A stretch of DNA of 64,000 bases from Marinicella sp. (GCA_965230295.1 OZ246001.1:1472001-1536000); one strand, 5' to 3'; positions 25,076 through 54,050 are shown, numbered from the stretch's first letter. Translations and numbers: made by a program. The notes: generated by a model not told the origin, from the letters alone.

Positions 25076-25430
25076 AGGAAAGCTCTTGGGGCTTCATTCT
25101 GGTTCATGGTCTGACAGGTCTTCATATTTGCTGCGCAAATAAACCGACCTTTACAGACTATTGTCTGAGCAGTTGCTTCGCACTGCATGTCTGTTCCAGA
25201 CAAAAGTGAAAGCGACCACTGCGAGCATGACATTCTATTTCGCGCTTTTCGCCTCTGATTGGCCTACATGGATGTAGGTCTGCCGCGATAGCAGGGAGCG
25301 ATAGCGGCCGCTATAACAATAGCTCACGGCTTATCACTCATTTCATCAAGGCTTATTGACTTCGTCAAACCGCCATGATTACATGTTTGGCCTAACCGGC
25401 TCGGCGTGTCAACCTGCTCAGCTAGTTTTC
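25076..25430. repeat. Dispersed modular intergenic element, copy 1 (longest, ~355 nt)
   Basis: 25092-25205 is the exact reverse complement of 53921-54034; the remainder aligns with 36488-36750. Confidence 0.9.
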
Positions 25431-25453
25431 AATGTGAAACTGTGTTGAAGTTA

Positions 25454-26350
25454 CTACTTTAAGCTTGCCAACATAGAGCCAATAACAATCAACACCACAC
25501 CCATGTAACCAACTGTTTGAATGGTCTCCGATGCCAACAAATGTGGAAACAGATAAGCAAATGCATTGATAAAGAATAACGTGATGACTGGTGTCAGTGC
25601 CAACACCATGCCCACCCTTGATGCATTCCAATGATTCAATGCTTCGGCAAATGCGCCGTAGGCAATCACCGTATTGATACAGGCATAAGCAATGGCCCAC
25701 CACTGGATGGGTGTGATGTTGTGGTATTGGCTGAAGTCACTCCAAAAAAACAGCACGATTGAAGCAAAGACATAGATAAACAACAATATGCTTTGTGAAG
25801 ACAAGACCCTGGCTAGTTTCTTCTGAATCAGTGCATAAATGGCCCATGTCAATGCCGCAATGAACATCACCCATATGCCCATCGTGTAATCACTGTTGAT
25901 GATCTGTTGAATTTGATCTTTGAAAAACAAACCCAACCCAATGAGGATACTCATGGCACCAGTCATTTGCATGCGGCTGAATGATTCTTTGAAAATCAGC
26001 ACCCCGCCCAAAGACATCAGCAAGGGCGCCATCTGGATAAAAACCTGGGCATTGGCAGGCGAAGTCATGTCCATACCAATCAGAAAAAAGACATAATTGG
26101 CTATCAGCATCATGGCTGCCATACCCAACCACAACCATTGTTTGGTATTCAGTTTTTTGAACTCTGACAGTTTGTTTCGACTCAATAAAATGACAAAAAC
26201 TACCAAGCCTGCGGTTAAAAAACGAAACCATGTCAGGGTCATGGCATCGGTGGCTGCCAAGCTGATTTTCAGGGCAATGGGTAAAGTGCTCCAAAACAAC
26301 ACCGTGATCAGCGATAAGATCAAGCCTTTGGTCCAGCTTTCATCAGTCAT
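25454..26350 (-). CDS. DMT/EamA family transporter
   Basis: About 10 TM segments, two EamA repeats, WSTLPIALK, FKE, TPVIT. Confidence 0.88.
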   Translation of the reverse strand: MTDESWTKGLILSLITVLFWSTLPIALKISLAATDAMTLTWFRFLTAGLVVFVILLSRNKLSEFKKLNTKQWLWLGMAAMMLIANYVFFLIGMDMTSPANAQVFIQMAPLLMSLGGVLIFKESFSRMQMTGAMSILIGLGLFFKDQIQQIINSDYTMGIWVMFIAALTWAIYALIQKKLARVLSSQSILLFIYVFASIVLFFWSDFSQYHNITPIQWWAIAYACINTVIAYGAFAEALNHWNASRVGMVLALTPVITLFFINAFAYLFPHLLASETIQTVGYMGVVLIVIGSMLASLK

Positions 26351-26494
26351 AACAACACCTTGATAGCAGCCCTCATCAAGGGCACAGAGATAAAGGCGCT
26401 ATTTAACTGCATTTTTAACAACGATGATATGAAAAACTCATAATAAATTGGACTAAGTGAATAGGTCTCGGTTGGGGTATTGGGCGGGTATGCG

Positions 26495-26531
26495 ATTCAG
26501 CTTTTATTCAGCCAATCGGCTGTAGTATAGT
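26495..26531 (+). promoter_or_regulatory. ATTCAG-N5-ATTCAG direct repeat (OmpR/PhoP-type box) upstream of a TATAGT -10
   Basis: Repeats at 26495-26500 and 26506-26511; TATAGT at 26526-26531. Confidence 0.45.
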
Positions 26532-26558
26532 GGTGTTATGAAAAACAGTGTGACCAAC

Positions 26559-27785
26559 ATGAAATTATTGATACCATTTTTGACCCTGTTCTTGGCCTCT
26601 TGTAGCGTTCACAATCATCGCTACGATGCCGAGGAAGATGTTTATTATCAAGATGATTATTATGCCTATGATAATTATGACCCTTATTATGGGTATGGAT
26701 CAGGAACATACAGCACAACAGGTAATGGTGTTTATTACAACAACTACAACTATTATCCAGATCGATGGGGCATCACCTACAGCAATGTCTATTACAGCCC
26801 TTATCGTTATCCGCGGGTGGGTTTTTACTTTTCTTCAGCCTACAATTGTGGCTACTCTTACTGGTCTAACTGGTGCTCGCCAAGTTATTGGTCACCTCAT
26901 CATTATGGACGCAGCTATTATGGCTGGGCGTCCTGGGGCTTTGGTTTAGGTTACAGTAGCATTTACTATGATAACTACTGGTGGTACAACCATTGGCGCA
27001 ATCGCACTTATAACCACCACAGACCCACTCAACGTGGTTATTACTCTGCTCGCAATGAAGCCAGGAGGCTGAATAACAACCGCTACAGGAATAACTACAA
27101 AGGCAGCAACCAAAATAGCCGATACAACCGAACAGGCTATAACAGCAACCGAAGTGGGGCAGTCAGCCGTGACCGATCTCGAAGCAACCGATCCATCAGC
27201 AGACCATCGAATCGTTCAGGCAACACAATCAGGTCCACTCGATCGGTACCAAGACAAAGGCAGCAATCTGCAAGCAGCAGACAGAACAGCCGATCATCCA
27301 ACAACCATGTATCTTCCAGAAACCAAGTGGCAGGCCGATCCACCAGTTACGGCTTACAACAGCGAATCAAAGAAGATTACGAGCCACAGCAAAATCGCTA
27401 CCAAAAACCCGCACCTGTGGCCAGGCAAATTTCAGGCAGATCAAACTCTCTCAACACGGGCCGAAATACTTCACAACAAAACACCCGCACAAGGGTAAAA
27501 CCGATGAACAGCCAATCACCGGTTTATCACACCAACACCCAGCCGGTGAATCGGTCACAAAGCAGATCAACAGGTGAGTTAAGGAGGGTACAGCAACATC
27601 GTCCGGCTGTGGCAAACAACAGATCGAGCCATACCAGCTCAAAACCTGTCAACAGATCAAAACCCAGTAACAGCAGAAGCAAACCATCCAACAACCGGTC
27701 CAGCAGTCAATCTAACAAGAGCAGCCGCTCTAATAGCAGCGCCAGATCAAATAGCAACAATAACCGCCGAAACCGATCTCGCTAA
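26559..27785 (+). CDS. Lipoprotein with a Tyr/Trp-rich N-half and an Arg/Ser/Asn-rich disordered C-half
   Basis: MKLLIPFLTLFLASC lipobox and strongly biased composition. Confidence 0.8.
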   Translation: MKLLIPFLTLFLASCSVHNHRYDAEEDVYYQDDYYAYDNYDPYYGYGSGTYSTTGNGVYYNNYNYYPDRWGITYSNVYYSPYRYPRVGFYFSSAYNCGYSYWSNWCSPSYWSPHHYGRSYYGWASWGFGLGYSSIYYDNYWWYNHWRNRTYNHHRPTQRGYYSARNEARRLNNNRYRNNYKGSNQNSRYNRTGYNSNRSGAVSRDRSRSNRSISRPSNRSGNTIRSTRSVPRQRQQSASSRQNSRSSNNHVSSRNQVAGRSTSYGLQQRIKEDYEPQQNRYQKPAPVARQISGRSNSLNTGRNTSQQNTRTRVKPMNSQSPVYHTNTQPVNRSQSRSTGELRRVQQHRPAVANNRSSHTSSKPVNRSKPSNSRSKPSNNRSSSQSNKSSRSNSSARSNSNNNRRNRSR

Positions 27786-27817
27786 AAAACTCCATCATTG
27801 ATTGTGCATGAATTAAC

Positions 27818-27841
27818 ATACCCGGCCAGCCCGGGTATTTT
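27818..27841 (+). terminator. Rho-independent terminator
   Basis: ATACCCGG-CCAGC-CCGGGTAT followed by TTT. Confidence 0.6.
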
Positions 27842-27912
27842 GCCATCTGGGTATCACAAAACACTTGTCTTTGTTGTAGAATAACAACGTTTTTAATCGG
27901 AACAACTAACAA

Positions 27913-29718
27913 ATGAAAAACTTATTGACCTTGTGTTTATTACTGTCACTGATGGCTTGTCAACACAAAACCATGAACAAACCAGAAACCGAAACCGTCA
28001 CTGTTGCGGATGCGCAGGCCTTTTTGGATAAAGTGGAAGAAACATATATCAAAGATTGGGAGTATGCGGCTAGAATTGCCTGGGTCCAAGCCAACTTCAT
28101 CACAGATGACACCGTCTGGCTGAATGCCAAGAGTACTGAAAAAATCATTGGCTTATCAGTTAAATTTGCCAACGAAGCCAAGAAATTTGATGACCTGGCA
28201 TTGTCCGATGACATGCGACGCCGAATGAATATCATCAAAGGCAGCCTGACATTGGCGGCACCAGATGACGCCAGTAAAAATGCAGAACTGGCACAGATCA
28301 TGGCTGAATTAGATGCCACTTATGGTGCCGGAAAATATTGTGTCGATGATGAATGTCAGAACTTAGGCCAGCTCTCTAGAACCATATTCGAGTCAAAAGA
28401 CCACAATGAATTATTAAAAGCTTGGCAAGGCTGGCGCACCGTTTCACCAAAAATGCGTCCCAAATACCAACGCATGGTTGAGTTGGCCAACGAAGGTGCC
28501 AAAGAATTAGGCTATGATGACACTGGCGCCATGTGGCGCGCTGGGTATGACATGCCTGCCAGTGATTTTCCGGTAGAACTGGACCGATTGTGGTCACAAG
28601 TCAAACCCCTTTACGATTCATTGCAGTGCCATGTGCGCACCAAACTCACCGAACATTATGGCGAAGAAGTGATGGGTGATGATGGCATGATCCCTGCCCA
28701 TTTACTGGGCAACATGTGGGCCCAAGACTGGACCGGTGTGTACGACATGGTCAAACCAGCCGATGCAGGCTCCACCATTGATGTCACTGCACTCCTGGAA
28801 AAGCATGATTACGATGCAGAAAAAATGGTCAAAACAGCAGAAGGCTTTTTCACTTCCTTGGGCTTAGAACCGTTACCTGATACTTTCTGGAAACGTTCGT
28901 TGTTCCTGAAGCCCAAAGACAGGGATGTTCAGTGCCATGCCAGTGCTTGGAATTTAGACAACGTGGATGACATCCGCATCAAAATGTGTATCAAAGAAGA
29001 CTATGAAGATTTTGTCACCATCCACCATGAATTGGGACACAACTTCTACCAACGCGCTTATAATGACAAAAGTATCCTCTACCGCACCGGAGCCAATGAT
29101 GGCTTCCATGAAGCCATTGGTGACACCGTTGCACTTTCTATCACACCTCAATATTTTAAAGACATTGGACTGATTGATGAAGTACCAGCCTCATCTAATG
29201 ATCTCGGTATGCTGATGAAAAAGGCTTTGGAAAAAATTGCCTTTGTGCCATTTGGCTTGATGGTTGATCAATGGCGCTGGAAAGTATTCAATGGTGAGAT
29301 TTCACCAGAGACATACAATGCCGGATGGTGGGAACTGCGTAACAAATACCAAGGTGTGAAAGCACCTGTTGAGCGCACCGAAGACCATTTTGATCCAGGC
29401 GCCAAATACCACATCCCCGGCAACACCCCATACACGCGATATTTCCTGGCCCACATTTTACAATTCCAGTTCCACCGGGAACTGTGTAAAGCTGCAGGCT
29501 ATGAAGGTGATTTACATCGCTGTTCAATTTATAACAACAAAGCCGCTGGTGAGAAGTTGATCAAAGTGCTGAACATGGGTGCTGAACGGCCTTGGCAAGA
29601 TGCCATGGAAGTGGTGGCTAATTCGCGTGAAATGGATGCCACGGCTGTGGTTGATTATTTTGCACCATTGAAAACTTGGTTGGATGAACAAAATCAAGGT
29701 CGCGATTGCGGATGGTAA
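27913..29718 (+). CDS. Peptidase M2 (peptidyl-dipeptidase A, ACE-like) lipoprotein
   Basis: Lipobox LMAC, PAHLLGNMWAQ, HHELGH, GFHEAIGD, FDPGAKYH. Confidence 0.93.
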   Translation: MKNLLTLCLLLSLMACQHKTMNKPETETVTVADAQAFLDKVEETYIKDWEYAARIAWVQANFITDDTVWLNAKSTEKIIGLSVKFANEAKKFDDLALSDDMRRRMNIIKGSLTLAAPDDASKNAELAQIMAELDATYGAGKYCVDDECQNLGQLSRTIFESKDHNELLKAWQGWRTVSPKMRPKYQRMVELANEGAKELGYDDTGAMWRAGYDMPASDFPVELDRLWSQVKPLYDSLQCHVRTKLTEHYGEEVMGDDGMIPAHLLGNMWAQDWTGVYDMVKPADAGSTIDVTALLEKHDYDAEKMVKTAEGFFTSLGLEPLPDTFWKRSLFLKPKDRDVQCHASAWNLDNVDDIRIKMCIKEDYEDFVTIHHELGHNFYQRAYNDKSILYRTGANDGFHEAIGDTVALSITPQYFKDIGLIDEVPASSNDLGMLMKKALEKIAFVPFGLMVDQWRWKVFNGEISPETYNAGWWELRNKYQGVKAPVERTEDHFDPGAKYHIPGNTPYTRYFLAHILQFQFHRELCKAAGYEGDLHRCSIYNNKAAGEKLIKVLNMGAERPWQDAMEVVANSREMDATAVVDYFAPLKTWLDEQNQGRDCGW

Positions 29719-29740
29719 AAACGAACCATTGTTAAAACGA

Positions 29741-29770
29741 AAAAGCCAACTTTTTAGTTGGCTTTTTTTT
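29741..29770 (+). terminator. Rho-independent terminator
   Basis: AAAAGCCAACT-TTTT-AGTTGGCTTTTTTTT. Confidence 0.8.
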
Positions 29771-29877
29771 GCAACAAGAATTAAAACAAAGGTTACATGA
29801 TCGGCCATTGGGTGGAACTTTAAAGCCTGGCTTGCTACCCTTACAGCCCAATTAATTAAAATACAGGAGTCACCATT

Positions 29878-30081
29878 ATGAGCGTAGCTAAAGTAACTGA
29901 AATCATCGCCAGTTCTAAAAAGGGTTTTGATGATGCCATCGAAAATGGTATAGAACGGGCCGCTAAAACCTTAAAAAACGTCAGCGGCGCATGGGTAGAA
30001 AGCCAAAAAGTGGTGGTAGAAGACGGCCAAATTGCTGAATACCGAGTGGCCATGAAAGTCACTTTTGTCCTGAAAGATTGA
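29878..30081 (+). CDS. Dodecin family protein
   Basis: SVAKVTEI..SS.KGFDDAI..GIERA.KTL...YRVAMKVTF; AGGAG RBS. Confidence 0.88.
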   Translation: MSVAKVTEIIASSKKGFDDAIENGIERAAKTLKNVSGAWVESQKVVVEDGQIAEYRVAMKVTFVLKD

Positions 30082-30098
30082 TTCCAAAATAAAGCCTT

Positions 30099-30238: not shown

Positions 30239-33200
30239 ATGACTGCATCAACCAACCCTTCTGCCAAACCAAACACCATTCCTAATCGCAAGTCAGCACT
30301 GACAATGGCCATTTCAATGGCATTGGCCACACCAGTTATCAGCCAAGCTGCCACTTTTAATGTCACCCAACCATTCGACAATGGCTCAGGTTCAGAAGCA
30401 GGGTCATTGAGTTGGGCCATCTTGCAAGCCAACACCAACCCCGGGCCAGATCTGATCGAGTTACAAACTGATGTCACCCTGACTGGTGTGATGAAACGTT
30501 TGATCGACTCGGACGTGACCCTATCCAGTGATGGCATCACCCGATCCATCAGTGGGAATGATCAATACCGGCCACTGTTTGTTAAATCAGGCGCTGTCAC
30601 CATGCAACGCATAATCGTCAGCAACTCCCGTGCAGAAGGGGGTGCGACAGGTGGTGGAGGTTCCGGTGCCGGATTGGGAGGCGCTTTGTTCATTTATGAT
30701 GGTCAAGTCAATCTCGACCAAGTTACCATCCAAGATTCTGTATCCATTGGCGGAAACGGGGGCGGCATTGGTTATGGAGGCGGAGGAATTTTTGGCGACC
30801 CAAATTATGGAGGTGGGGGCGGTCTGTTTGCCAATGCGACGAACAGCAATGGTGGCTACGGCGGCTATGGTAACTACCAAAACATCAGCAGTGACTTTGG
30901 TCAGGGCAGTGATTACTCTTACGTTGGGCCTGCCCTCAATGCAGGATTTGGCGGCGGGGGCGGGGGCAGTTACCAAGGCGGTGGTGGTCATGGCGGATTT
31001 GGTGGCGGTGGAGGCTACAGCTACCTTGACAGTGCAGGTGATGGCGGATTTGGCGGTGGCGGGGGCCCTGGCGGTGGCGCACCCGGCTTTGGCGGCGTTT
31101 ATCGATTTGGCGCTGGATTGGGGGGTGGAATCTTCATCCGGAGTGGCGAGCTGGATTTGAACAACGTCACTTTTGAAAACAACAGTACGCTGCGCCAAAC
31201 CCCAGCGGTTGAAGCGCTGGGCGGCGCTTTGTTTGTCATGCACACCTCCAGCAACACCAATGGCAATGACCAAGGAATGCCAGCCCAGCTGCCCAATGTA
31301 ACCGGCTGCGGGGTGAGTTTTATCAACAATTCAGCGGCCAGCAGTCCGGGGACCAGCAACAACAACAATGATTTTTTCGACTTGGCCGATCGAATTGTTC
31401 CTGACAATGGAGTGTCTCTATCAGATCCATGTGTGATTCCAGAAAGAGAGATTGTACTCACCGGCAATGGTGAGAATATCACTGATGGAGATAACACACC
31501 TGACACAGGTGATTTTACAGCTATGGGCAATGCCTTGATCATGGGCCAACCATTGAGTCGTACCTTTGAGATCACCAACATCGGCAACACCCAGCTTGAT
31601 CTGACCGGCAACCCTGTTGTTGAATTACAGAACAACAGTGGACAATTCAGCATCACTTCACAGCCGTTCAGTACAGCTCTCAATAACGGCGACATGACCT
31701 CGTTTGAGGTCACATTCACCCCTGTGGCCGAAGGTCCAGACTCGGCAACAGTGGTGATTCAAAACAATGATTCGGATGAAGCCCCATTTGATTTCAGCGT
31801 TTCCGCCGAAGGGTTTTTAAACACCATTCCCTATTTCGTCACTGAGACAACTGACAATGGAACAGGACTAGAAGAAAACACACTGAGTTGGGCCATATTA
31901 CAGGCCAACAGCAACCCAGGTAGTGACTTGATCGAACTCCAATCAGATGTGACCCTCACTGGAGTGATGAAACGCTTGGTGGATTCAGATGTCACGATTG
32001 CCAGTGATGGCACCCACAGAACCATCAGTGGTAACAACCAACACAGGCCCTTATTTATCAGGTCAGGCCAGGTTAACATCAACAATTTGACCCTTTCAAA
32101 CGGACGGGCCCAAGGTGGCAGTTCGCGATTAGGCGGCTATGGTGCTGGCTTGGGAGGAAGTCTCTTTATTTATGACGGCCAGGTCAATTTGGAATCAGTC
32201 GTCATCAGCCAATCTGTGGCTGTTGGTGGCTCTAGAGACGAATGTTTAAATGCAGGTATTTTCTGCGAAGGTGGTGGCGGCATGTTTGGATACGGCCTCA
32301 ATGGAGGTGGCGGTCTGTTTGGCTCAATTTTAACTGGCAACGCTGGCGCTTATGGGGGCTATGGGCTGTATCAAAACCCAGATCCCATGTTTGGGCAAGG
32401 CGGACAAGCCCGCAACCCTTCAGCAGGTCAAAACGGTGGCTTTGGCGGCGGTGGCGGCTACGGTTTCTATGATGCAGGTGGTCATGGCGGCTTTGGCGGC
32501 GGTGGTGGCCACACCTACGATTATACTTGCGCCAGTTATGGTGGCAGCTATTGTACATATTATCCAGGTGATGGAGGGTTTGGTGCTGGTGGAGGTAAAG
32601 CCACCAGCTACACCGCTCGGAATGGCACAGCCGGCTTTGGTGGTTACCAACATCTGGCCGCTGGCTTGGGAGGTGGTGTCTTCGTCAGATCTGGTCAAGT
32701 CAGTTTTGCCGATGTTACCATCAGTAACAACCTGGCTATGAGCTCAAATGATTCTGGCCAAAATTCTGAAGGTTTAGGCGGTGGGATCTTTGTCATGCAC
32801 ACCCTATCCAACCCCAATGGTAATCAACAAGGCATGCCTACAACCTTACCTTCAGTGACAGGTTGTGGTGTGAGTTTTTTTGGCAATACATCCGACACAG
32901 ACTCAGGTAGCGCTGATAACAACGATGATTTATTTGACTTGGCTGGTAACATTTCGGGTGTGGGCGGAGGGGTCATTACCGACCCTTGTCCTGGATCAGA
33001 ACAAGATATTTTGGTATCCGGAAATGGCACGGAAATTACGGATGGTGACACCACACCAGAGATTGGCGATTTCACCTTTTTAGGTTCTGCACAAATCATG
33101 GGGCAGTCAGTAACCCAGAGATTTGAAATCACCAATGTGGGTGTAACTGACTTGAACCTAACGGGTATACCCATCATTGAATTACAAAACAACAATGGTC

Positions 33201-34363
33201 AGTTTAGTGTGACATCCCAACCTCAAATTACCCAGTTAAGCCAAGGTCAAACCGTTGGCTTTGATGTGACATTCACGCCCTCCTCAGAAGGCACTGATAC
33301 AGCCACTGTGGTGATTCAAAATGATGACCCGGATGAGGCACCTTATGACTTCACGATAGAAGCTGAAGGGGTTGCCCAAGCACCGGTGTTACAGGTGTTG
33401 GGTAATGGTACTGAAATTATTTTTGCAGACAACACCCCCAATCCAGATGACAACACCGATTTCGGCTACACACCGGTGGCAAATGGCATGATTGAAAAAA
33501 CATTTGAACTTAAAAACATTGGCTTGGCACCATTGAATTTATCTGATGTGCAATTGTTTCAGTTTAACAATGATTTTTCCATCACCCAAAACATCACCGA
33601 CGCCACTCTGGACACTGATGAGTCAACCTTTGTGACGGTGCGACTGGATCCTGAAAATGCCGGCCCCAGTTCATTCACTGCTTTTGAAGTGTATGATGAC
33701 AACTTCAACTTTTTGCATTTCCACCAAATAACCGGTTATGGCCAACCCTCGTTGATCATCAATTCTGAGGTCAATTACGTTCAGGAAGGTGGCACTGCCG
33801 AATTCACTGTCAGCACCGATGTGCCACCCACTGAAAGCTTGAATTTCTTGTGGCAAGTCACTGGTCAAGTGGACTCGCAAGACTTCCCAGCGGGTCTTCC
33901 ATCAGGTGCTGGAATTGTCTCCGATCAATCCAATGACTTCTCCATTCAATTCCAGACCCGACAGGATGGGGTATATGAGGGGCCGGAATTATTTACAGTG
34001 GTACTCAGTACAACAGACCCAAGACTGGCCCTTGGATTCCCCAGTGTTTCTGGTGGTGTGATTGATGACGATTTGATCTTTGCTGATGGATTTAACCCTG
34101 CCAGTCTTAACCAGGTCCTGTCCGGAATGGCACGCTATGCCATTGATGGCGACAACTTGCCCAGTTGTGATGTTGAGTCTTGTCAGTTTTTAAACCGCAG
34201 CATGGATTTAAGCCGTGATCATGTATGGAATATCAATGATGTGATTGCATGGTTTGAAGAAACCCTGGTGATGGTACAACCCAATGGCGACTGGGACGGT
34301 GATGGCCTGCCCAACCACCATGACTTGAATCCTTTTGGTTTATCACAAAAACTGAAGGATTGA
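30239..34363 (+). CDS. Large secreted surface protein: two ~490-aa Gly-rich plus Ig-like (choice-of-anchor D/ASH-like) modules, a third Ig-like domain, a Calx-beta-like domain and a DLIFADGF motif
   Basis: Signal peptide; duplicated LSWAILQAN...VMKRL and GGFGGGGG blocks; FEITNIG/IQNNDSDEAPFDF repeats; DGVYEGPELFTVVL. Confidence 0.8.
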   Translation: MTASTNPSAKPNTIPNRKSALTMAISMALATPVISQAATFNVTQPFDNGSGSEAGSLSWAILQANTNPGPDLIELQTDVTLTGVMKRLIDSDVTLSSDGITRSISGNDQYRPLFVKSGAVTMQRIIVSNSRAEGGATGGGGSGAGLGGALFIYDGQVNLDQVTIQDSVSIGGNGGGIGYGGGGIFGDPNYGGGGGLFANATNSNGGYGGYGNYQNISSDFGQGSDYSYVGPALNAGFGGGGGGSYQGGGGHGGFGGGGGYSYLDSAGDGGFGGGGGPGGGAPGFGGVYRFGAGLGGGIFIRSGELDLNNVTFENNSTLRQTPAVEALGGALFVMHTSSNTNGNDQGMPAQLPNVTGCGVSFINNSAASSPGTSNNNNDFFDLADRIVPDNGVSLSDPCVIPEREIVLTGNGENITDGDNTPDTGDFTAMGNALIMGQPLSRTFEITNIGNTQLDLTGNPVVELQNNSGQFSITSQPFSTALNNGDMTSFEVTFTPVAEGPDSATVVIQNNDSDEAPFDFSVSAEGFLNTIPYFVTETTDNGTGLEENTLSWAILQANSNPGSDLIELQSDVTLTGVMKRLVDSDVTIASDGTHRTISGNNQHRPLFIRSGQVNINNLTLSNGRAQGGSSRLGGYGAGLGGSLFIYDGQVNLESVVISQSVAVGGSRDECLNAGIFCEGGGGMFGYGLNGGGGLFGSILTGNAGAYGGYGLYQNPDPMFGQGGQARNPSAGQNGGFGGGGGYGFYDAGGHGGFGGGGGHTYDYTCASYGGSYCTYYPGDGGFGAGGGKATSYTARNGTAGFGGYQHLAAGLGGGVFVRSGQVSFADVTISNNLAMSSNDSGQNSEGLGGGIFVMHTLSNPNGNQQGMPTTLPSVTGCGVSFFGNTSDTDSGSADNNDDLFDLAGNISGVGGGVITDPCPGSEQDILVSGNGTEITDGDTTPEIGDFTFLGSAQIMGQSVTQRFEITNVGVTDLNLTGIPIIELQNNNGQFSVTSQPQITQLSQGQTVGFDVTFTPSSEGTDTATVVIQNDDPDEAPYDFTIEAEGVAQAPVLQVLGNGTEIIFADNTPNPDDNTDFGYTPVANGMIEKTFELKNIGLAPLNLSDVQLFQFNNDFSITQNITDATLDTDESTFVTVRLDPENAGPSSFTAFEVYDDNFNFLHFHQITGYGQPSLIINSEVNYVQEGGTAEFTVSTDVPPTESLNFLWQVTGQVDSQDFPAGLPSGAGIVSDQSNDFSIQFQTRQDGVYEGPELFTVVLSTTDPRLALGFPSVSGGVIDDDLIFADGFNPASLNQVLSGMARYAIDGDNLPSCDVESCQFLNRSMDLSRDHVWNINDVIAWFEETLVMVQPNGDWDGDGLPNHHDLNPFGLSQKLKD

Positions 34364-36454: not shown

Positions 36455-36478
36455 AAAAAAGGCCTGTTTCCAGGCCTT
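36455..36478 (-). terminator. Rho-independent terminator of the blaI-blaR operon
   Basis: Minus strand AAGGCCTG-GAAA-CAGGCC-TTTTTT. Confidence 0.75.
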
Positions 36479-36487
36479 CAATTCAAT

Positions 36488-36750
36488 GGAGAGCTGATGA
36501 TCAGCTCGACCGGCGCACTCGGTTAGGCAGATCATGTAAGAATGGCGATTTGACAAAGTCAAGAAGCCTTGATGGAGTGATCGATAAGCCGTGAAGCCTC
36601 GCTGGTCGCTTCCGCATCCTGCTCACGCGACAGACCTACATCCCTGTAAGCCAGTCAGAGAGTGCAAGCCCGAGGTAGTAAGCCATGTCCGCCGCGGCCG
36701 CTTTCACTTTTGTAGGAACAAAAGTGAATGAAGTCCCAAGGACATTCCTT
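36488..36750. repeat. Dispersed modular intergenic element, copy 2 (lacks the inner 114-nt module)
   Basis: Aligns with the reverse complement of 25076-25430 (CGGTTAGGC, AAGCCTTGATG, GATAAGCCGTGA, CAGACCTACATCC, CGCTTTCACTTTTG, AATGAAG.CCCAAG). Confidence 0.85.
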
Positions 36751-36765: not shown

Positions 36766-38415
36766 TCATTGGACCTTAAGTAACTTTAACGTTTTTACTC
36801 TGATGGATTCTTGCTCAAGTCGGGCTTGCTCCCTTTTCATAGCCTGTACATCATCACGCAATTGTGCCCTTTCTTTTTCTAAAAGTGCATGCATTTGCGC
36901 CTCTTGTTTTTGTTGCTGAACTTGCAGTTGTCTTCGTTGTTGATCAAGCTGGGCCAATTGTTGTTTGATCTCTGCTTTTTCCTGGTTGAGTTTTTCTGTC
37001 ATGTGATCCAGTTCCCTTTGCATCTCCTGCAAATCTACTTCTGTATCTTGGTGTTTGGCCATGGCCTGCTCCTGTTCCCTCAAAGCCATTTCAACCGCTT
37101 CCATCTTTGCTTCACGCATTCGCTCGATTTCTTCGGCTTCTTCTCTTTCTTTGGCTTCATGCAAGTCTTCAATTTCTGCTGCTTCATGCCTGTGACCGGC
37201 ATGAGGAACGGCCGCCGGTGCCTGAACTGGGTGAGGTGCAACCACGCCATCAATATGGGGGTCAATGGCTGGTGTTGGAACGATCTCAGGTTGTGGTGGT
37301 TGAGCTACAGAATGAAGCGAGGGTACAGCTGGCACTTGCAAATGTGGCATTTCAGGTGAGGCAGGCCGGGGTGCTGTTGGTACAGTAACCTCAGACACTG
37401 GATCGCTGTGTTCAATGACTGTTGCTTCATGCGCAGAGGTGAGTTGAGATGCAGTAATCAGCAAAGTGGTTAAACTGGCTGAAATCAACAACAGGCTTTG
37501 TTTATTTGAATTCATGATTGGGCTCCTTTGTTGGGGGTTTAATATTAGATTCAGTCGCTGGTACATGGCGCTGGGTTGGGCCATCAAAGTCGTGACTTGG
37601 GTCAAGGGTTGTTGACATGCTGGATGAAATGACAACAATGTTTCGACATAACGGGAAGGCGGAACTTGCTGCCGCAACACCAGCTCATCACAAGCTTGTT
37701 CAAAGCTGTTGATGAGTTGTTTCTTAACCCACCACAGCATGGGATTGAACCAAAACAAGGCTGTGAACGTGTGGGCAAACATCATCCAAAACCAATCTTT
37801 GCGTTTGATGTGGGCCAATTCATGCATCAGTATCACACGAAAAGCTTCATCATTTCGGATGTTCTCAGGTATCAGAACCACTGGCTTGAACAAACCCCAG
37901 GTACAAGGTGACCTGAATGTTGGTGTCACTTTAATGGATGGCGATTGTGCTAAATTCAGTTGATTGGCACAGCGTTCAGCGATTTGATGCCATTCAAGTC
38001 GGTTGATCTTTTCAGCCGCAGCTGTGATTTGATACAGTTTGATGATTTGGTGGATTATGCGAGCCACCAAGGCCAAGCTGACCAACAAGACCAACCATGC
38101 CCAAACTGGCATGACAGGCTCTGTCGGTTGAGACGCTGCAAAATTATTCTGCCACACGGCTGGCTCAACCAGATGCGGCAAGACCTGTTCATGAGATTGG
38201 CCAACAGCCGGTAAAATGGGTAACTGGAGAAATAACAGGTGTTGGTTAAGCCACGGCAGAAACAGCAACACCATCATGCCTATACGCCAAATCCACGCAT
38301 GTGTTGCTGCACTGAACTGACACCGCTTAAGTTGTATCAACAACAGCAAAACCAGGGCCATCTTGACTGCCAGTTGTAGCCAAGGGTTGTAGACAATCAT
38401 TAACCCGTCCATCAT
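36766..38415 (-). CDS. BlaR1/M56 family metallopeptidase-sensor with Pro-rich and coiled-coil C-terminus
   Basis: SPCTWGLFKPVVLIP, HELAHIKRKD, WFNP, EQACD. Confidence 0.9.
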   Translation of the reverse strand: MMDGLMIVYNPWLQLAVKMALVLLLLIQLKRCQFSAATHAWIWRIGMMVLLFLPWLNQHLLFLQLPILPAVGQSHEQVLPHLVEPAVWQNNFAASQPTEPVMPVWAWLVLLVSLALVARIIHQIIKLYQITAAAEKINRLEWHQIAERCANQLNLAQSPSIKVTPTFRSPCTWGLFKPVVLIPENIRNDEAFRVILMHELAHIKRKDWFWMMFAHTFTALFWFNPMLWWVKKQLINSFEQACDELVLRQQVPPSRYVETLLSFHPACQQPLTQVTTLMAQPSAMYQRLNLILNPQQRSPIMNSNKQSLLLISASLTTLLITASQLTSAHEATVIEHSDPVSEVTVPTAPRPASPEMPHLQVPAVPSLHSVAQPPQPEIVPTPAIDPHIDGVVAPHPVQAPAAVPHAGHRHEAAEIEDLHEAKEREEAEEIERMREAKMEAVEMALREQEQAMAKHQDTEVDLQEMQRELDHMTEKLNQEKAEIKQQLAQLDQQRRQLQVQQQKQEAQMHALLEKERAQLRDDVQAMKREQARLEQESIRVKTLKLLKVQ

Positions 38416-40525: not shown

Positions 40526-41143
40526 ATGAATTTAGAAAAACTGAAAGCCGCTGAAGCGCAATTTTTACAACTGTACCCTTTGGGGTTTGATGACCCTGAA
40601 ATGCAAAAAATTGGCAAGAAACACAAGATGCCACAAATGATTGAGCAGTGCCAAACCCTGTTTGCTGAGCTTGAATTCAACAAACCGCACATCATCGTGG
40701 CAAACATGGTGAAAATGATCAGTCGTTCGTCCATGGTATCGATGTTTGAAAAACCGAAGTTTCGCGACTTTGTCAAATCATTACCTGGTGGTGATGTGGA
40801 TCGGTTGAGTGAGGCCTTTTTTGAACAGCTGTACGGCAACCAACAACAAGGTTTTGAGCAAATGCTGGACTTACTGCGCAGCCAAAAACTGGCCAAGTGG
40901 TCACTGATTTCCATCCTACCCAATTACGTTTACCCAAACCAAGAGGTGTTTGTCAAACCCACCACTGCCAAAGGTGTGATTGCTCATTTTGAGTTAGAAG
41001 ACCTGGTTTATAAACCGCAACCCACTTGGGATTTTTATCAAAAATACCAATCACAGATCTTAGACATGAAACAACACGTCGACCACACACTGACATCAAG
41101 CAACGCCGCTTTCTCTGGGTTTTTGATGATGAGTATGCAGTAA
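40526..41143 (+). CDS. Conserved hypothetical protein
   Basis: 205-aa ORF with plausible composition. No family assigned. Confidence 0.7.
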   Translation: MNLEKLKAAEAQFLQLYPLGFDDPEMQKIGKKHKMPQMIEQCQTLFAELEFNKPHIIVANMVKMISRSSMVSMFEKPKFRDFVKSLPGGDVDRLSEAFFEQLYGNQQQGFEQMLDLLRSQKLAKWSLISILPNYVYPNQEVFVKPTTAKGVIAHFELEDLVYKPQPTWDFYQKYQSQILDMKQHVDHTLTSSNAAFSGFLMMSMQ

Positions 41144-41195
41144 GGAAAGTTCTTGGGGCTAAGGTTTCCGGCTCAAGCTGCCCAGCCGCCTTCCT
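41143..41195. repeat. Dispersed modular element, copy 4 (53-nt mini version: both termini, no interior)
   Basis: AGGAAAGTTCTTGGGGCT matches 25076-25093 at 17/18 positions. The 3' part TCAAGCTGCCCAGCCGCCTTCC resembles the far termini of copies 1-3. Confidence 0.6.
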
Positions 41196-47116: not shown

Positions 47117-47122
47117 GAGTTG

Positions 47123-48026: not shown

Positions 48027-48056
48027 GAATACATATATTCATACAAGAGAACAACA

Positions 48057-50240
48057 ATGAAACCCATGCAACTGTTATTGACCTTACTTCTGGGCTTTGC
48101 TGCAAACAATTTGTGCGCTGCTTATCAATTCAACAACCAGTTTTTTGGCGGGCCTAACCAAAGTGTCTTTACCCTCAGCGGTGATTTGAACGGTTTTGTT
48201 GCGGCCAGACAATCGGTACCCGTCGAATATATGAATGAAGCAGGTGATTTAGAGTGTCATGTGTTGTTCAGAAAAACCGCCAATTCCTGGCAATCAATGG
48301 GTGATATTGGATCAATCAACAATGGTCAAGATTGTCCTTTGATCACAGGAGGTGCATTCCCTATTCAAGCGGTTGAAGCGTTTGGGCCTGATACCTGTAT
48401 CGGTGGAGAATTCACCAATTTGGGCGGTGTGGCCGGGTTGAGTTATTTTGCCTGTTATTCTGATTCATTGGGCTGGTATCAACCCAATGGCATTGGCAAC
48501 GGCCCCAATGGGCCGGTGTATTCGATAGATTCAGATGCCTTGAATTTATACTTGGGAGGCGCATTCACCGAAGTCGATGGCGGTACCAGTGCCCGACGGG
48601 TGGTGAAAACCGATGGTTTGTTCTGGACGCCTTTGTACACTGATAACCAACAAACCAGTGATGGTGTCAATTCGACAGTTCAAGCGGTCTTTTCCACCAC
48701 CAGTTTCCTGGTCATTCAAATGGGCAACTCAACCATCACCTGGAACCCTTCAGTGCCTGAGTTTTTGGTCAGGGGAACACACAATGGCAATGCCGCATCC
48801 CATCCTGATGTGGTTATCAATGGTTCCACATTGACCGTTTCAACACGTGGTGCCTCACTGGTATCAGGGGATCCCGGTGGCAGCATTTCAGATTTTAATA
48901 TTGGTGGCGAGGAATGGTCAGAGTTTGGCATGACCGATGGTATTGATACCGATTTTGGTCAATTGGCTTTTGGCCTGGGTCCTTTGTATGCCACCGGGGA
49001 TTTCACCAGTTTTGATCCTGATGCCAGAGGACTTGCTTGGTACAACAGCATCACCTGGGAAGCCGCACCAGATGCAGCCTTGTTAGGCGATTTAGCCACC
49101 ACCCCACCTACAGATTTACAGCAAGGTGGTTCCCAGTTTTGTGTGTTGACCCAAGGGGTTCCTACCGATGCTGAACTGTATTGGAACACCCAGGTTTGTT
49201 ACGATGGCAGCAATTGGCAAGGCGACAATCAAGCTCCCATCTCTAACATCATCCAAACCATTGGTGAATTTAATAACCGCATCATTCATGGCGGCGATTT
49301 CAACGCCATCGGTGATCAAATATCGCCATTTGTGGGTGAGTTGGGTTCTACCAACCTTTGGACAGCCATCAGCCAACTGGCCTGGAGTGGCGCAGGTTCA
49401 GGGCATGTACGTCATTTGCAGGTATTTGATGGTGAACTGTATGCCACAGGCCTTTTTGACTCCGCCAATGGCGTCCCTGTACAGCACATAGCCAAATATG
49501 ATGGCACCAACTGGTCGCCAGTCATCACTGGTCTGAATGCCCTGAACGGTCACATGACTGTCTGGAACAACCAACTGATCATCCAAGGCACTTTCAACGC
49601 CATGGGACCCATCCTGACCTGGGATGGCAGTAACATCGGTGAAGCCGGGAACTTCAACCAAGGCGGCATCATCACTGATTTATCTACCCATCAAAACGAC
49701 TTGATCCTGGCCAATTTAGCCGCTGGAACCAGTCGCCTTTATGCATACGATGGTGGCACATGGCAGACTTTCGCCGGGACCCTACAAGGTGTCATCAACA
49801 CCACTGAGTCAGTGGGTAATCACTTGTATGTGGGTGGCGATTTCAGCAGTGCATGCAACACGGTGGATTTTGTGTTCGCTGAAAACATTTTCAGGTGGGA
49901 TGGCACGGGTTGTGACGCTTTGGGGGCAGGCGTCACCAACTCAGGCCCGATTGTCGGCATCAGCGACATCGTGCCCTATGGCAATGGCGTGATTGTGACT
50001 GGTCGCTTTAACCAAGCCGGTGGCCAAGCAGCCAACAGTTTGGCAATTTGGAATGGCAACAATTGGTTGGCCATGGACCAAGGGTTGGTGGATGGCATCG
50101 ACGAAGGTCAAGGCAATGCGTTGTGGATGAAGGACAACGCCCTCTATGTGGCTGGCTATTTTGAACAAGCCGGGGCGGTGTTATCACACAACTTTGCTTC
50201 AGTTGACCTGGATCCCTTGTTTAAAAGCGGGTTCGAATGA
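48057..50240 (+). CDS. Secreted beta-propeller-like repeat protein ending DPLFKSGFE
   Basis: Signal peptide; repeated LY.GG.F / W(D/N)G..W units. Confidence 0.78.
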   Translation: MKPMQLLLTLLLGFAANNLCAAYQFNNQFFGGPNQSVFTLSGDLNGFVAARQSVPVEYMNEAGDLECHVLFRKTANSWQSMGDIGSINNGQDCPLITGGAFPIQAVEAFGPDTCIGGEFTNLGGVAGLSYFACYSDSLGWYQPNGIGNGPNGPVYSIDSDALNLYLGGAFTEVDGGTSARRVVKTDGLFWTPLYTDNQQTSDGVNSTVQAVFSTTSFLVIQMGNSTITWNPSVPEFLVRGTHNGNAASHPDVVINGSTLTVSTRGASLVSGDPGGSISDFNIGGEEWSEFGMTDGIDTDFGQLAFGLGPLYATGDFTSFDPDARGLAWYNSITWEAAPDAALLGDLATTPPTDLQQGGSQFCVLTQGVPTDAELYWNTQVCYDGSNWQGDNQAPISNIIQTIGEFNNRIIHGGDFNAIGDQISPFVGELGSTNLWTAISQLAWSGAGSGHVRHLQVFDGELYATGLFDSANGVPVQHIAKYDGTNWSPVITGLNALNGHMTVWNNQLIIQGTFNAMGPILTWDGSNIGEAGNFNQGGIITDLSTHQNDLILANLAAGTSRLYAYDGGTWQTFAGTLQGVINTTESVGNHLYVGGDFSSACNTVDFVFAENIFRWDGTGCDALGAGVTNSGPIVGISDIVPYGNGVIVTGRFNQAGGQAANSLAIWNGNNWLAMDQGLVDGIDEGQGNALWMKDNALYVAGYFEQAGAVLSHNFASVDLDPLFKSGFE

Positions 50241-50271
50241 ACCCATACATTGACCAGGTGGTAACAACAAG

Positions 50272-50838
50272 TCACTGCATTTGGGTGATAAGCCAGGCCC
50301 TGGCAGCAGTCCAGTGGCGGTTGACTGTACGCGATGATGTGTTTAATGCCAAGGCAGTCTGCTCAACATTGAGACCGGAAAAATACCGCAACTTAACCAC
50401 GTCTGCCATCATCGGATCTTTTTCCTCAAGCTGTGACAGAGCACGATCCAAAGCCAAGATTTCGCCGCCCATGCTGTCTTCCAGAGCCACATCAATATCC
50501 CCGGTATGGGGCGCATTGGCACCACGTTTTAAACTGGCTTTGGCACGCGCGGATTCAATCAGTATGCGGCGCATGGACTCAGCCACTGCGGCAAAAAAAT
50601 GGCGTTTAGAATCCCAATTGAGGTCCGGTTGATTAACCAGGCGCAGGTAGGCTTCATGAACCAGTGCAGTTGGGGTTAATGTGTGGTTGGCTCGCTCGGA
50701 TTGCATCTTGGCTTGGGCCATGCGCCGCAATTCGACATAGATCAGGTTCAACAGCTGATTCTGTTTATCCTGATCACTGATGTCGTCTCTGGTCAACAGC
50801 GCTGTAACTTGTGAGCGGGTTTGGTCAAGCGAATCCAT
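50272..50838 (-). CDS. ECF-type sigma factor (STK-associated, TIGR02999-like)
   Basis: VTALL, YVELRRMA, HTLTPTALVHEAYLRL, HFFA, LRYFSGL, W..ARAWL. Confidence 0.9.
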   Translation of the reverse strand: MDSLDQTRSQVTALLTRDDISDQDKQNQLLNLIYVELRRMAQAKMQSERANHTLTPTALVHEAYLRLVNQPDLNWDSKRHFFAAVAESMRRILIESARAKASLKRGANAPHTGDIDVALEDSMGGEILALDRALSQLEEKDPMMADVVKLRYFSGLNVEQTALALNTSSRTVNRHWTAARAWLITQMQ

Positions 50839-50889
50839 GTTGTTATTGTAACTCAGCTCAAACTAAAAATTATGCGATAATCATAGACA

Positions 50890-53769
50890 ATGACTGATAA
50901 AGAGAACAAACACACAAAATCAGACACCACAGACTGGGATTTGCAATGGCAATTGTTTGATCAAATCATTGAGGCTGATGCAGAAAGGCAGGAACAATTG
51001 CTGTCTGAAATCAAACAGCAACATCCGCAGCATCACGATGTTTTGGTTGAACTGTTGGCCTCACACAACACGGCATCCACTTTGCTGGATGAGCCCATTA
51101 CCCAATTTGATGTGACCAAAAATGAACACATTCCCACTGAAATCGGAGGCTATGAAATCATCGAGCCCCTCGGGGCAGGTGGTTTGGGTGATGTTTATTT
51201 GGCACGCAAAGCTGAAGAAGGCTTTGAGCACATTGTGGCCTTGAAAATGGCCCCTTCTGGCCGCTATTCGAACCTGGTTTTGGACAGTTTTAACAATGAA
51301 TTGAGGATGTTATTGAACCTCAATCACCCCAACATTGAGCGTTTATTTGAAGGTGGTGTTTCAGCAGATAACATTCCTTACCTGGTGGTTGAATACATTG
51401 ACGGTGCTCACATTGACAGGTACTGCGACCAAAATCAACTTAACGTCAAACAACGCATCAAATTATTTGTCCAAATTTGTGAAGCTGTGGCCACACTGCA
51501 CCAATCACTCATCATTCACCGAGACATCAAACCAAGTAACATCATGGTCGACCAACAGGGCACAGCCAAGCTGCTGGATTTTGGCTTAGCCAAACTGATG
51601 GACATGAACCCGAGTGAAACACAAGAGGAGGCGACCATTTCAGGTTATATGATGACTTTGGCGTATGCCAGCCCTGAACAAATCAAAGGGCAAAACATCA
51701 CCACCGCCAGTGATGTTTATGCCTTGGGTATGCTGCTCTATTATTTGCTGTCCGGACAACTGCCTTACCGGATCAAACACAATGATTTGGCTGACGCAAG
51801 CAGACAAATCACTGAAAAAGTCCCACCAGTCGCCAGCCAGAACATCTTGAATGAGGCCGTCATTAATCAGCAACATGGCCAACTCAAAAAGCAGTTAAAA
51901 GGTGAGTTGGATGCCATTTTAGCCAAAGCCATTCACAAGGAACCTGAACGCCGTTATGCATCGGCCCAACAGTTGGCTGACGACCTCAACCGTTACTTAA
52001 ACCACCACCCCATCACAGCCAAGCCTGATAGCATCAGTTACCGCATGAATAAATTCATCCAGCGCCACACAGCTGGTGTGTTGACTTCATCGCTATTTGT
52101 GATTTCTTTGGTGGTCTTGACGGTGATGCTCTTCAACCGCTCACATGAATTGGAAAATGCCCTGTTGGCCACCCAGCAGGAACAAAGGCGAGTCACTGCG
52201 GTGACTGATTTCCTGGTCGATGTTTTCAAAGTGTCGGACCCGCTGTTGAACCAGTCTGAAATTGTAGATGTGAAAGATTTGCTGGATTACTCAACTGAAC
52301 AGTTGCACAATCAATTCAATGAAGAACCTGCCACCAAAGCCCGTTTATACGAAACTTTGGGGTCGGTTTATCTGAACATGAGTGACATCACCCAAGCCGA
52401 TCAGCTCTTGCAGCACGCCGCTGCCATCCATTACAGCAAACAACCTCAAGAGCAGCTGTCTTCCTTGCTGATCCAAGCTGAACTGATGTTACGCAAAGGC
52501 GAACTGAACCCAGCTTTGTCATTGATTTCTGAGTTCAAACAGCAACACGCCGACCTATCCATCAACCCATCAACACAATTACGTTTGGCATTGCTGCAAG
52601 GTACCTTACAGTACCAACTGGGCCAATCTGATGCAGCCATCAGCACCCTGACTCAAGCAGAACAAACATTGGCCAACGATGAGTCCTCTAACAACCTGTT
52701 CAAAGTGCAACAATTGCGTGCTGACATCAACCATTTACTGGGGAATGTTTATTGGAAACTGGGGGATTTTCCAAAAGTGGCCGAGCATTATGAAAAAGGT
52801 TACAACAGCAACTTGGCTCGCTTAGGACCAGACCATCATTTCACCCTGAAAAGTTTGTCTGCTTTGGGTGTGTTGGCCTATGCCCAAGGTGATTTCAATC
52901 AAGCCTTGGTACAGTTGGATCAAGTACTGAAATCTCGAAGCGCACACTTGGGAGAAGATCATTTTCTGACGGCCGACGCCCACAATCGACTCGGAGCCAC
53001 CCACTATGAGTTAGGCCATCTGGACGATGCGGTCACCCATTACGATGCTGCACTGAAGGCATTTGACGCCAGCGGTTTAACAGACTCAATCAAGTACACC
53101 CGGGTATTGAACAATTTGGGATTGGTCAAACGCCTACAAAACCAAGCCACTGAAGCCCAAGCCCTGTTCACCGAAGCCCTGCGAATTCAAACCCAGTTAC
53201 TGGGTGAAGGACACCCTGACCTGGGCACCATGATGCATAATCTGGGTCTGGTGGCCATCGATCAGCATGAATATGAACTGGCCTTGGACTGGTTCATGAA
53301 ATCGTATGACATCCAATACCAAGCCAATCAATTGAACAACATCAACATCACCCATGCCATGAGCAACATCGCCCGCATGCATGTGTTTCTTGGTCAGCCA
53401 GAACAGGCACAAACCTGGATTGATGACGCCTTATTTTTGCGCCTGTCACAACTAGGTGAAGACAACTTACTGTATGCAGTGACTTTGATGGTTCAAGCCG
53501 AATGGGCCTTGGCTTCTGGCAATGATGAATTGGCCAGGCAAGCCGCACAGGCTGCATTCAAGATACGAGACCATTTATTGGATGATACCGACATCCGTTT
53601 GATTTTCTCACGGTTGTTTGTTAACAGCATGGCAGCTGATAAACCAGAACAAGCCCAAGCGGCTATATGCGACTTGATCAAGCTAGAAAACGCCTTTGGA
53701 CAACAACACCCTACTGTAGTTGCTCTGGCCTCCAGGTTACCTCAAGGCTTAACGTCTTCATGTCAATGA
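50890..53769 (+). CDS. Hanks-type Ser/Thr protein kinase with TM segment and C-terminal TPRs
   Basis: LGAGGLGDVY, VALK, HRDIKPSN, DFG, YASPE, SDVYALG, RRY; multiple LG.DH/NNLG TPRs. Confidence 0.93.
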   Translation: MTDKENKHTKSDTTDWDLQWQLFDQIIEADAERQEQLLSEIKQQHPQHHDVLVELLASHNTASTLLDEPITQFDVTKNEHIPTEIGGYEIIEPLGAGGLGDVYLARKAEEGFEHIVALKMAPSGRYSNLVLDSFNNELRMLLNLNHPNIERLFEGGVSADNIPYLVVEYIDGAHIDRYCDQNQLNVKQRIKLFVQICEAVATLHQSLIIHRDIKPSNIMVDQQGTAKLLDFGLAKLMDMNPSETQEEATISGYMMTLAYASPEQIKGQNITTASDVYALGMLLYYLLSGQLPYRIKHNDLADASRQITEKVPPVASQNILNEAVINQQHGQLKKQLKGELDAILAKAIHKEPERRYASAQQLADDLNRYLNHHPITAKPDSISYRMNKFIQRHTAGVLTSSLFVISLVVLTVMLFNRSHELENALLATQQEQRRVTAVTDFLVDVFKVSDPLLNQSEIVDVKDLLDYSTEQLHNQFNEEPATKARLYETLGSVYLNMSDITQADQLLQHAAAIHYSKQPQEQLSSLLIQAELMLRKGELNPALSLISEFKQQHADLSINPSTQLRLALLQGTLQYQLGQSDAAISTLTQAEQTLANDESSNNLFKVQQLRADINHLLGNVYWKLGDFPKVAEHYEKGYNSNLARLGPDHHFTLKSLSALGVLAYAQGDFNQALVQLDQVLKSRSAHLGEDHFLTADAHNRLGATHYELGHLDDAVTHYDAALKAFDASGLTDSIKYTRVLNNLGLVKRLQNQATEAQALFTEALRIQTQLLGEGHPDLGTMMHNLGLVAIDQHEYELALDWFMKSYDIQYQANQLNNINITHAMSNIARMHVFLGQPEQAQTWIDDALFLRLSQLGEDNLLYAVTLMVQAEWALASGNDELARQAAQAAFKIRDHLLDDTDIRLIFSRLFVNSMAADKPEQAQAAICDLIKLENAFGQQHPTVVALASRLPQGLTSSCQ

Positions 53770-53789
53770 GGGTTATACATGTGTGACTC

Positions 53790-54050
53790 GGAAAACTGGT
53801 GATCAGTTCGACCAGCGCAGGTAATGAAAGCATGGTGGTTTACCTGAAAGGTAATAAGCCTTGCTTGAATACCGTAGCTCGTCCGAGGTAGCAAGTTATG
53901 CTCACCGCGGTCGCTTTCATTTTTGTCTGGAACAGACATGCAGTGCGAAGCAACTGCTCAGACAATAGTCTGTAAAGGTCGGTTTATTTGCGCAGCAAAT
54001 ATGAAGACCTGTCAGACCATGAACCAGAATGAAGACCCAAGGGCATTCCT
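53790..54050. repeat. Dispersed modular intergenic element, copy 3
   Basis: 53921-54034 is identical to the reverse complement of 25092-25205; ends match copy 2 (TGATCAG.TCGACC.GCGCA; CCGAGGTAG; CCCAAGG.CATTCCT). Confidence 0.9.

Follow-up and report, generated by a model that had tools for sequence, protein, structure and literature searches.

The REP/BIME, BOX and ERIC repeats of bacteria have been known for decades, and for most of them it is still unsettled how they move and why their folds are kept. In the BOX elements of Streptococcus pneumoniae the parts boxA, boxB(n) and boxC act as modules, and the ERIC/IRU elements of enterobacteria carry extra inserts at fixed internal sites; both are non-coding, lie beside gene ends, have stable predicted folds and a mobilising enzyme that is unknown or debated. 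The bcr1 repeats of the Bacillus cereus group, about 150 nt long and similar to MITEs (miniature inverted-repeat transposable elements), occur in one lineage only, have a fold with compensatory changes and are reported with a TTTAT duplication and transcription data. Elements of the IS200/IS605 type lack duplications and inverted repeats, carry subterminal hairpins and insert strand-specifically at the replication fork (PMC5027513, PMC3333891). Here we describe a repeat family found in a 64,000-nt stretch of Marinicella sp. DNA (GCA_965230295.1 OZ246001.1:1472001-1536000, hereafter the window), which is C1:1472001-1536000 of genome G000, a single contig of 4,008,074 bp that is 97.9% complete. 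The family consists of mosaic structured interspersed repeats, and it is unusual in its covariation-locked 3′ terminus, its plug-in domains, its strand bias and the lack of a visible mobiliser. We tentatively favour, with slightly less than even confidence, the interpretation that it is a non-autonomous element spread as a folded single strand by an enzyme that is not among the recognised ones.

When the four copies in the window were compared with the whole genome by blastn, 473 matches were obtained, which merge to give 115 loci. Each merged locus spans 27-642 nt and all of them together cover 31,656 nt, with family members put at 53-634 nt; exactly four of the loci are in the window. The 3′ motif RNCCCAAGNNCNTTCCTT has 69 exact occurrences genome-wide, with three extra two-mismatch matches that look spurious. 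This is a repeat family well beyond chance, and the expectation of the sequence-only reading, drawn from the window, that many more copies would be found across the genome has thus been confirmed. The copies have in common their 5′ end, GGAAAGCTG..., and their 3′ end, ...CCCAAGAACATTCCTT, and their borders are sharp: in alignments of 10 long and 17 short copies, similarity begins at GGAAAG and ends at CCTT. Pairing of ends found by profile hidden Markov models gave a 5′ partner within 700 nt for 80 of the 128 3′ ends and showed discrete length classes of 149 (the commonest), 236, 269, 300, 356, 420, 453, 485, 550 and 633 nt. Two further candidates were set aside, namely (i) a frame of >100 aa in the 633-nt copies, which begins inside the repeat and looks spurious as coding capacity, and (ii) four long-range end pairs taken as larger elements, which enclose ordinary genes such as that for ribonucleotide reductase.

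The 149-nt core folds into a conserved structure. For an alignment of 69 core copies, taken from G000 and 12 relatives (13 genomes in all), RNAalifold predicts a three-hairpin single-strand fold of 40 pairs, 21 of them with pair-keeping changes on both sides. Standard pairs fill 98.4% of the 2,673 cells on the predicted structure, compared with 90.6% (standard deviation 0.3) in column shuffles; none of 500 shuffles reached the observed value on any of five measures, and when the partners are slid by 1-3 columns the paired cells fall to 35-42%. The scaffold runs from GGA through the 7-bp hairpin P1 (alignment columns 4-10 with 14-20), the long irregular hairpin P2 (columns 25-72) and a long irregular hairpin formed by the outer helix P3 (columns 87-92 with 145-150 and 96-101 with 138-142) and P4 (columns 106-116 with 122-133), to a terminal NCCNN. 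P3 pairs the 3′ terminus with an internal hexamer, and does so in many versions: ATGTTC/GAACAT, GTGTTC/GAACAC, ATGTCC/GGACAT, ATGCCC/GGGCAT, ATGATC/GATCAT and ATGTCT/AGACAT, as well as CCGTTC/GAACGG in G033, a relative with 62% GC. P1 occurs as AAGCTGC/GCAGCTT, GAGCTGC/GCAGCTC, GTGCTGC/GCAGCAC, GAGCCGA/TCGGCTC and others. Compensatory changes therefore keep the fold across species ranging from 44% to 62% GC, and the earlier suggestion of a structured nucleic acid is borne out by the covariation. Two details of that suggestion need correction: what had been read as a looser second terminus is actually a clearly delimited 5′ end in which GGA leads into a covarying hairpin of 7 bp, and the imperfect pairing proposed between the two ends is limited to GG/CC, the true long-range helix being that of the 3′ terminus with the internal ATGTTC.

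Unpaired parts of the core are conserved as well, since GGTTGG, GAGCGNAGCGAA, CAGAG, CGCCGTGGTCG, GGAAC and GAATGAAGNCCCAAG are kept in all these genomes, and the fold includes tandem G-A pairs and wobble pairs. Rare within-species variants number 134 in the 69 unpaired columns, as opposed to 38 uncompensated ones in the 80 paired columns (about a fourfold difference in density), while another 32 cells have compensated changes. Two wobble pairs persist in 64 of the 67 distinct rows, and G-T outnumbers A-C by 33 to 15 among distinct helix haplotypes; the wobble pairs thus moderately favour the forward strand as the folded one. Energy folding cannot tell the strands apart, with z from -2.1 to -3.3 for both strands, as DNA or as RNA.

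The copies are also oriented with respect to replication. Cumulative GC skew places the origin at about 1.70 Mb and the terminus at about 3.84 Mb; dnaA lies at 1,721,237, and both rRNA operons are co-oriented with this assignment. For 89 of the 128 3′ ends (89:39, p about 1e-5) the forward strand of the element is on the nascent-lagging side, that is, it belongs to the leading-strand template, and the reverse strand of the same 89 of 128 copies is on the lagging template. The bias is strongest in the 149-nt class (16:2) and among the 600-634-nt copies (9:0), and is weaker in the heterogeneous remainder (28:15, 30:18, 6:2 and 0:2). Because the most uniform, and presumably youngest, classes are the most biased, the pattern would reflect insertion rather than later loss. 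By crude gene calls, 60% of genes are co-oriented with replication; element orientation has no comparable tie to the neighbouring genes, the four possible arrangements being found 34, 34, 28 and 22 times. In G024, a species of a second genus of the family, where dnaA was the sole guide, six of seven hits follow the same strand rule.

A fold of this kind keeps an RNA role seriously under consideration. In the main rival explanation, which we regard as somewhat unlikely, the copies are structured-RNA genes or cis-modules, either stand-alone non-coding RNAs or portable 3′ untranslated region (UTR) elements for transcript ends or stability, with selection acting on each copy and dispersal being secondary. 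The multi-helix architecture, the long-range pairing, the conserved unpaired motifs, the tandem G-A and wobble pairs and the persistence of all this up to 62% GC would suit such a role, as would the scarcity of rare within-species variants in paired columns. Moreover, in the sole orthologous pair of copies (G014/G016) the element is 97% identical compared with 81-86% for its flanks, many copies abut stop codons, and copy 2 of the window sits between a stop codon and a terminator-like hairpin. However, Rfam 15 has no match in the window at gathering scores and none on the element at E up to 10, in keeping with the earlier statement that the repeat resembles neither REP nor ERIC. The orientation of copies is, as noted above, unrelated to that of neighbouring genes, and their flanks are unrelated to one another, so that there is no shared promoter. 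RNA genes are usually not head-on to replication, whereas the wobble-favoured strand would be transcribed head-on in 70-100% of copies, and more than 100 copies with presence or absence of whole domains would be unusual for a functional RNA.

The ends of the element carry a signature of their own. No target duplication, direct or reverse-complement, was found for k = 2-5 at many offsets in 126 end pairs. Position -4 relative to the 5′ end is occupied by C in 57 of 73 copies of this genome, 45 of 57 copies of relatives and all nine readable copies of G033; the three intervening bases vary freely. On the 3′ side the flank is rich in A/T, and 62 of 95 copies have T at +3. The 3′ end itself follows NCCNN, which is TCCTT here, ACCTT in one subfamily and GCCGA in G033. 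One element sits precisely between AAGG and AATG of an older truncated end fragment, and two 3′ ends stand head to head in two cases; AAGG always precedes the left end on the reverse strand, and is indistinguishable from element sequence. Hairpins are subterminal at both ends, P1 beginning 3 nt from the 5′ end and P3 stopping 5 nt from the 3′ end, and the inverted match between the ends is 6 nt long and imperfect.

That weak inversion (GGAAAG... / ...CATTCC) could be taken as the trace of a classical MITE, a deletion derivative of an insertion sequence with a DDE transposase that moves by cut-and-paste through terminal inverted repeats. The ends change in concert between species (GGAGTG with CACACC, GGAGAG with CATACC), and a variant at 701206-701372 of G000 has two 3′-type ends in inverted orientation. 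Nor is the strand bias by itself an obstacle, since transposase families of several pathways have a replication-linked orientation bias (PMC3971601). Yet a DDE-type MITE is unlikely because 2-5-bp target-site duplications are absent at any offset in the 126 end pairs. In addition, self-megablast finds no multi-copy insertion sequence in the genome, long repeats being limited to the two rRNA operons, tuf, some paralogous genes and repeats inside genes; there is no DDE_Tnp_1 gene, and the single rve open reading frame (ORF) is unlinked to any copy. A covarying internal fold is also unnecessary for such elements. Taken together, we consider this origin very improbable.

Longer classes are built from the core, which is present in every class (one representative per class compared), by adding at least six optional modules, each at a fixed place of the fold. 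One module, made of two hairpins, takes the place of the second hairpin's tip, flanked by CCGGTT and AATCAG, and one further insert may be placed inside this tip module; one or two hairpin cassettes may follow GGCGAAGAG; one of two alternatives may be placed between GTTCGCC and GTGGTCG; and a 115-nt module may replace AAAAGT in the last hairpin. Four of the cassettes appear by eye to be variants of one hairpin design of about 65 nt. This agrees with the sequence-only reading, which had described non-coding repeats forming a modular family whose ends are common to all copies and whose hairpin cassettes can be exchanged. It had also called the family nested, in the sense of elements inserted in elements, and this is not established: the modules are without the family's own ends, their positions in the fold are fixed, and they can differ in place between strains. 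Specifically, two metagenome assemblies (L266, 6750-6898, and the reverse complement of L283, 1-248), the sole strain-level comparison, share a site with flanks that are 96.3% identical, one with a bare 149-nt core and the other with the core and a tip module of about 120 nt, the remainder being identical. Modules are accordingly gained or lost in place, a change for which exchange between dispersed copies is no worse an explanation than the insertion of a mini-element. Head-to-tail arrays of units without P1 also occur, with a period of about 120-150 nt, at 1312978-1313526 of G000 (five 122-nt units) and in G015, G008 and G024.

Positions of copies are seldom shared between species. The gene to the left of copy 2 has an orthologue in nine other species, with an element nearby in only one (G023), where it is inverted, and the intergenic region of a copy in G002 has orthologues in five relatives, none of them with the element. 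Among 58 copies from 12 relatives the G014/G016 pair is the only one with common flanks. These non-orthologous positions bear out the idea of a multi-copy family with different sites in different species, and from positions, turnover and signatures we infer that it is mobile. Each species has its own subfamily consensus, and within the genome identity is 91-100% among 149-nt copies and 93-98% among 633-nt copies, as against about 70-80% for orthologous coding flanks between species; this high within-class identity, together with the species-specific consensus, points to recent amplification, separate in each lineage. Both observations run counter to the view that the copies are relics of an earlier amplification, driven by an enzyme that has since disappeared (e.g. 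Y1 or another HUH enzyme), and are now inert, reshuffled by homologous recombination and slippage. What speaks for relics is a closed chromosome without a plausible enzyme, the patchy occurrence of Y1 genes (PF01797) in the genus (16 of 24 genomes), and the head-to-tail arrays and mosaic copies, which are expected from recombination. On balance we find the relic view improbable.

In the interpretation that we prefer, the family would be spreading, or would have been doing so up to recent times, in the form of a folded single strand, in the simplest case of single-stranded DNA at replication forks. Its route would produce no duplications and be strand-specific, after the manner of 'peel and paste' in IS200/IS605 elements and REP/BIMEs, with the enzyme supplied in trans, and the module mosaic would arise mainly from recombination or gene conversion between dispersed copies. 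Several observations weigh against it. No candidate mobilising enzyme is recognised in the window or in the genome: the genome has no match to the reverse transcriptase (PF00078) or IS110 (PF01548) families and no TnpB. The presumption that the mobiliser lies outside the window is without support, none being recognised elsewhere in the genome either. The suggested look for copies beside a RAYT/Y1, IS110 or reverse transcriptase gene found none, Y1 being unlinked and the other two absent. Y1 is missing from three genomes rich in copies (G019, G021 and G016), G003, which is free of copies, does have it, and the covariance model of the core gives no hit in 24 Y1 loci (72.7 kb), none lying within 1.5 kb. 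Genes of the rve, DDE_Tnp_1 and resolvase types are patchy and follow no consistent pattern, with no element beside resolvase genes; the IS91 Y2 family (PF04986) has no match in five genomes, a result that is uninformative since the positive control was also without a match.

Further points against spread as a folded single strand concern the strand and the fold. The wobble-tolerant strand is on the leading-strand template, contrary to the rule for IS608; again with dnaA as the sole guide, the strand rule is followed by only one of four copies on contig C1 of G001; and a whole-length fold with conserved junction motifs exceeds the known needs of HUH elements and looks RNA-like. Finally, there is no pair of filled and empty sites among species representatives or public runs. 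Flanking genes are only about 70-80% identical between species representatives, hence intergenic DNA does not align and base-exact empty sites are not available, and the public runs with the stretch (three rows, one study, with no RNA data set listed) are metagenome contigs that stop at the repeats, with no joint across a copy. A bolder possibility, which we consider unlikely, is that this is a selfish element of a new class, a folded nucleic acid of some 150 nt that accepts plug-in hairpin domains and places copies of itself at fresh intergenic sites, at the fork, without a dedicated transposase or reverse transcriptase, via host replication and repair enzymes or an unrecognised mobiliser, and in which the junction motifs and the C-NNN-GGA and NCCNN ends would be the recognition and joining signals.

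The genome does contain a single RAYT-like Y1 ORF of 187 aa (G000:C1:1669261-1669824), flanked by inverted REPs of the form GGAGCG-(TTGAC/GGGAC/GTGAC)-TTCAG-(complement)-CG, whose stems covary between copies and which occur at about 20 sites genome-wide. Together with the ORF, these REPs make up a classical REP/RAYT system of their own, which has no relationship to the mosaic family.

The family is lineage-restricted. Of the other 23 species of the genus, 18 contain the 149-nt core by blastn. When a covariance model derived from 69 copies is run over 151 genomes of the order, G000 included, it detects the family in 11 of the 12 species of the genus sampled, in G024 as the only sampled species of the second genus (seven hits), in G033, from another family of the order (16 hits), and weakly in G031 (one hit). 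It finds no member in the other 60 genera of the order searched, nor in 150 other families of the class, each represented by one genome. A metagenome-assembled genome of Marinicella sp. has the motif at three loci, one with a full copy, and marine-type metagenome contigs hold 27 loci of the family; viral contigs have no match to the 26-nt 3′ pattern. In the main texts of the papers searched the 3′ motif is absent and nothing relevant on Marinicella repeats appears, so that the family is undescribed in Rfam and in the literature searched.

The four window copies lie, within a few bases, where they had originally been noted. In their common forward orientation they start with GGA(A/G)(A/G)G and the 7-bp hairpin, and finish in ...GAATGAAGNCCCAAGNNC(A/T)TTCCTT. 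Copy 1 (25075-25430, minus strand, 356 nt) consists of the core, a P2-apex module of two hairpins, one of them TTGAC-GAA-GTCAA, and the 115-nt 3′ module; its 3′ terminus has CCTA in place of CCTT, and the same architecture is seen in the G000 copies at 1426230, 1998272 and 3091196. Copy 2 (36488-36750, plus strand, 263 nt) has the core with a P2-apex module in the TTGAC-AAA-GTCAA variant and a simple P4 hairpin; CAAT precedes its 5′ end, with the C at -4, and the covariance model matches it at 36618-36750 with 81.4 bits (E 2.5e-20). Copy 3 (53790-54051, plus strand, 262 nt) has the 5′ hairpin, one cassette (TTACCT-GAA-AGGTAA) replacing the P2 apex, and the 115-nt 3′ module, with a covariance-model match at 53790-53966 (E 5.3e-7). 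Copy 4 (41142-41194, minus strand, 53 nt) consists of the two ends alone, with a 5′ end resembling P1 joined to the 3′ terminus AGCCCCAAGAACTTTCCTT. The repeat search within the window aligns 25076-25242 with 53884-54050 (167 nt, 93%), 25200-25309 with 36604-36713 (75%) and 25324-25420 with 36498-36594 (78%). Earlier descriptions of the triplet of hairpin variants given above, of the ends-only copy at 41.1 kb and of the exchange of a simple TTCACTTTTGT...ACAAAAGTGAA hairpin for the 115-nt module in copies 1 and 3 all hold in the sequence.

Gene ends are close to three of these copies. Copy 4 overlaps the TAA stop of the gene at 40526-41143, and the final two bases of copy 3 overlap the stop at 54050-54052 of the minus-strand gene 54050-55309; the overlap of the stops at 41141-41143 and 54050-54052 with the AAGG/CCTT terminus is thus as first reported. 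Copy 2 is flanked by the stop of the minus-strand gene 36766-38415 and by the terminator-like hairpin at 36455-36480; this adjoins the copy and, on the minus strand, consists of a GC-rich hairpin with a run of T behind it. With the hairpin in this position, copy 2 is predicted to be transcribed, reversed, in the 3′ UTR of that gene. Two other repetitive features of the window are a tandem repeat at 16815-17187 with a period of 105 nt, seen as three overlapping 163-nt copies that are 96-99% identical, and a 1374-aa ORF at 30239-34363 with an internal duplication of about 1.5 kb (blocks 71-78% identical) and glycine-rich repeats of the GGFGGGGG type.

This family offers a clean case, with a closed genome free of insertion sequences, more than 100 young copies, a compensated fold, domains in fixed places, a strand bias and no recognisable mobiliser, and in a marine genus that can be cultivated it lets one test what it is that moves structured repeats without genes. 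In practical terms, the covariance model lets annotators account for about 0.8% of the genome as a repeat family, and the repeats explain why short-read assemblies of these bacteria break at the copies.

With mosaic interspersed repeats in the broad sense (BIME, NIME, BOX and ERIC) the family shares its intergenic, non-coding and multi-copy nature and its interchangeable modules; it has no sequence relation to any named family, and its membership is of the general kind only. In its modular non-coding build it is similar to BOX and ERIC/IRU, although sequence relation and a TA-type duplication are lacking and a 3′-locking helix, at least six modules and a replication-strand bias are present. 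With bcr1 it shares a lineage-restricted, compensated fold, but here no duplication is seen. The likeness to the REP/BIME-RAYT and IS200/IS605 elements includes being intergenic, non-coding and multi-copy without an inverted-repeat or duplication signature, and also subterminal covarying hairpins, mosaics, a single-strand logic, a replication-linked bias and head-to-tail arrays (PMC3333891, PMC5027513). There are also differences: the unit of 149-634 nt with a three-domain fold stands against a hairpin of 20-40 nt, there is no GTAG-type head, Y1 genes neither track nor flank the copies, and, unlike in IS200/IS605, the wobble-tolerant strand is on the leading-strand rather than the lagging-strand template. 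Because the link to an enzyme is missing and the apparent folded strand is on the wrong template, the family is not a member of the IS200/IS605 or REP/RAYT systems, for all that it resembles them.

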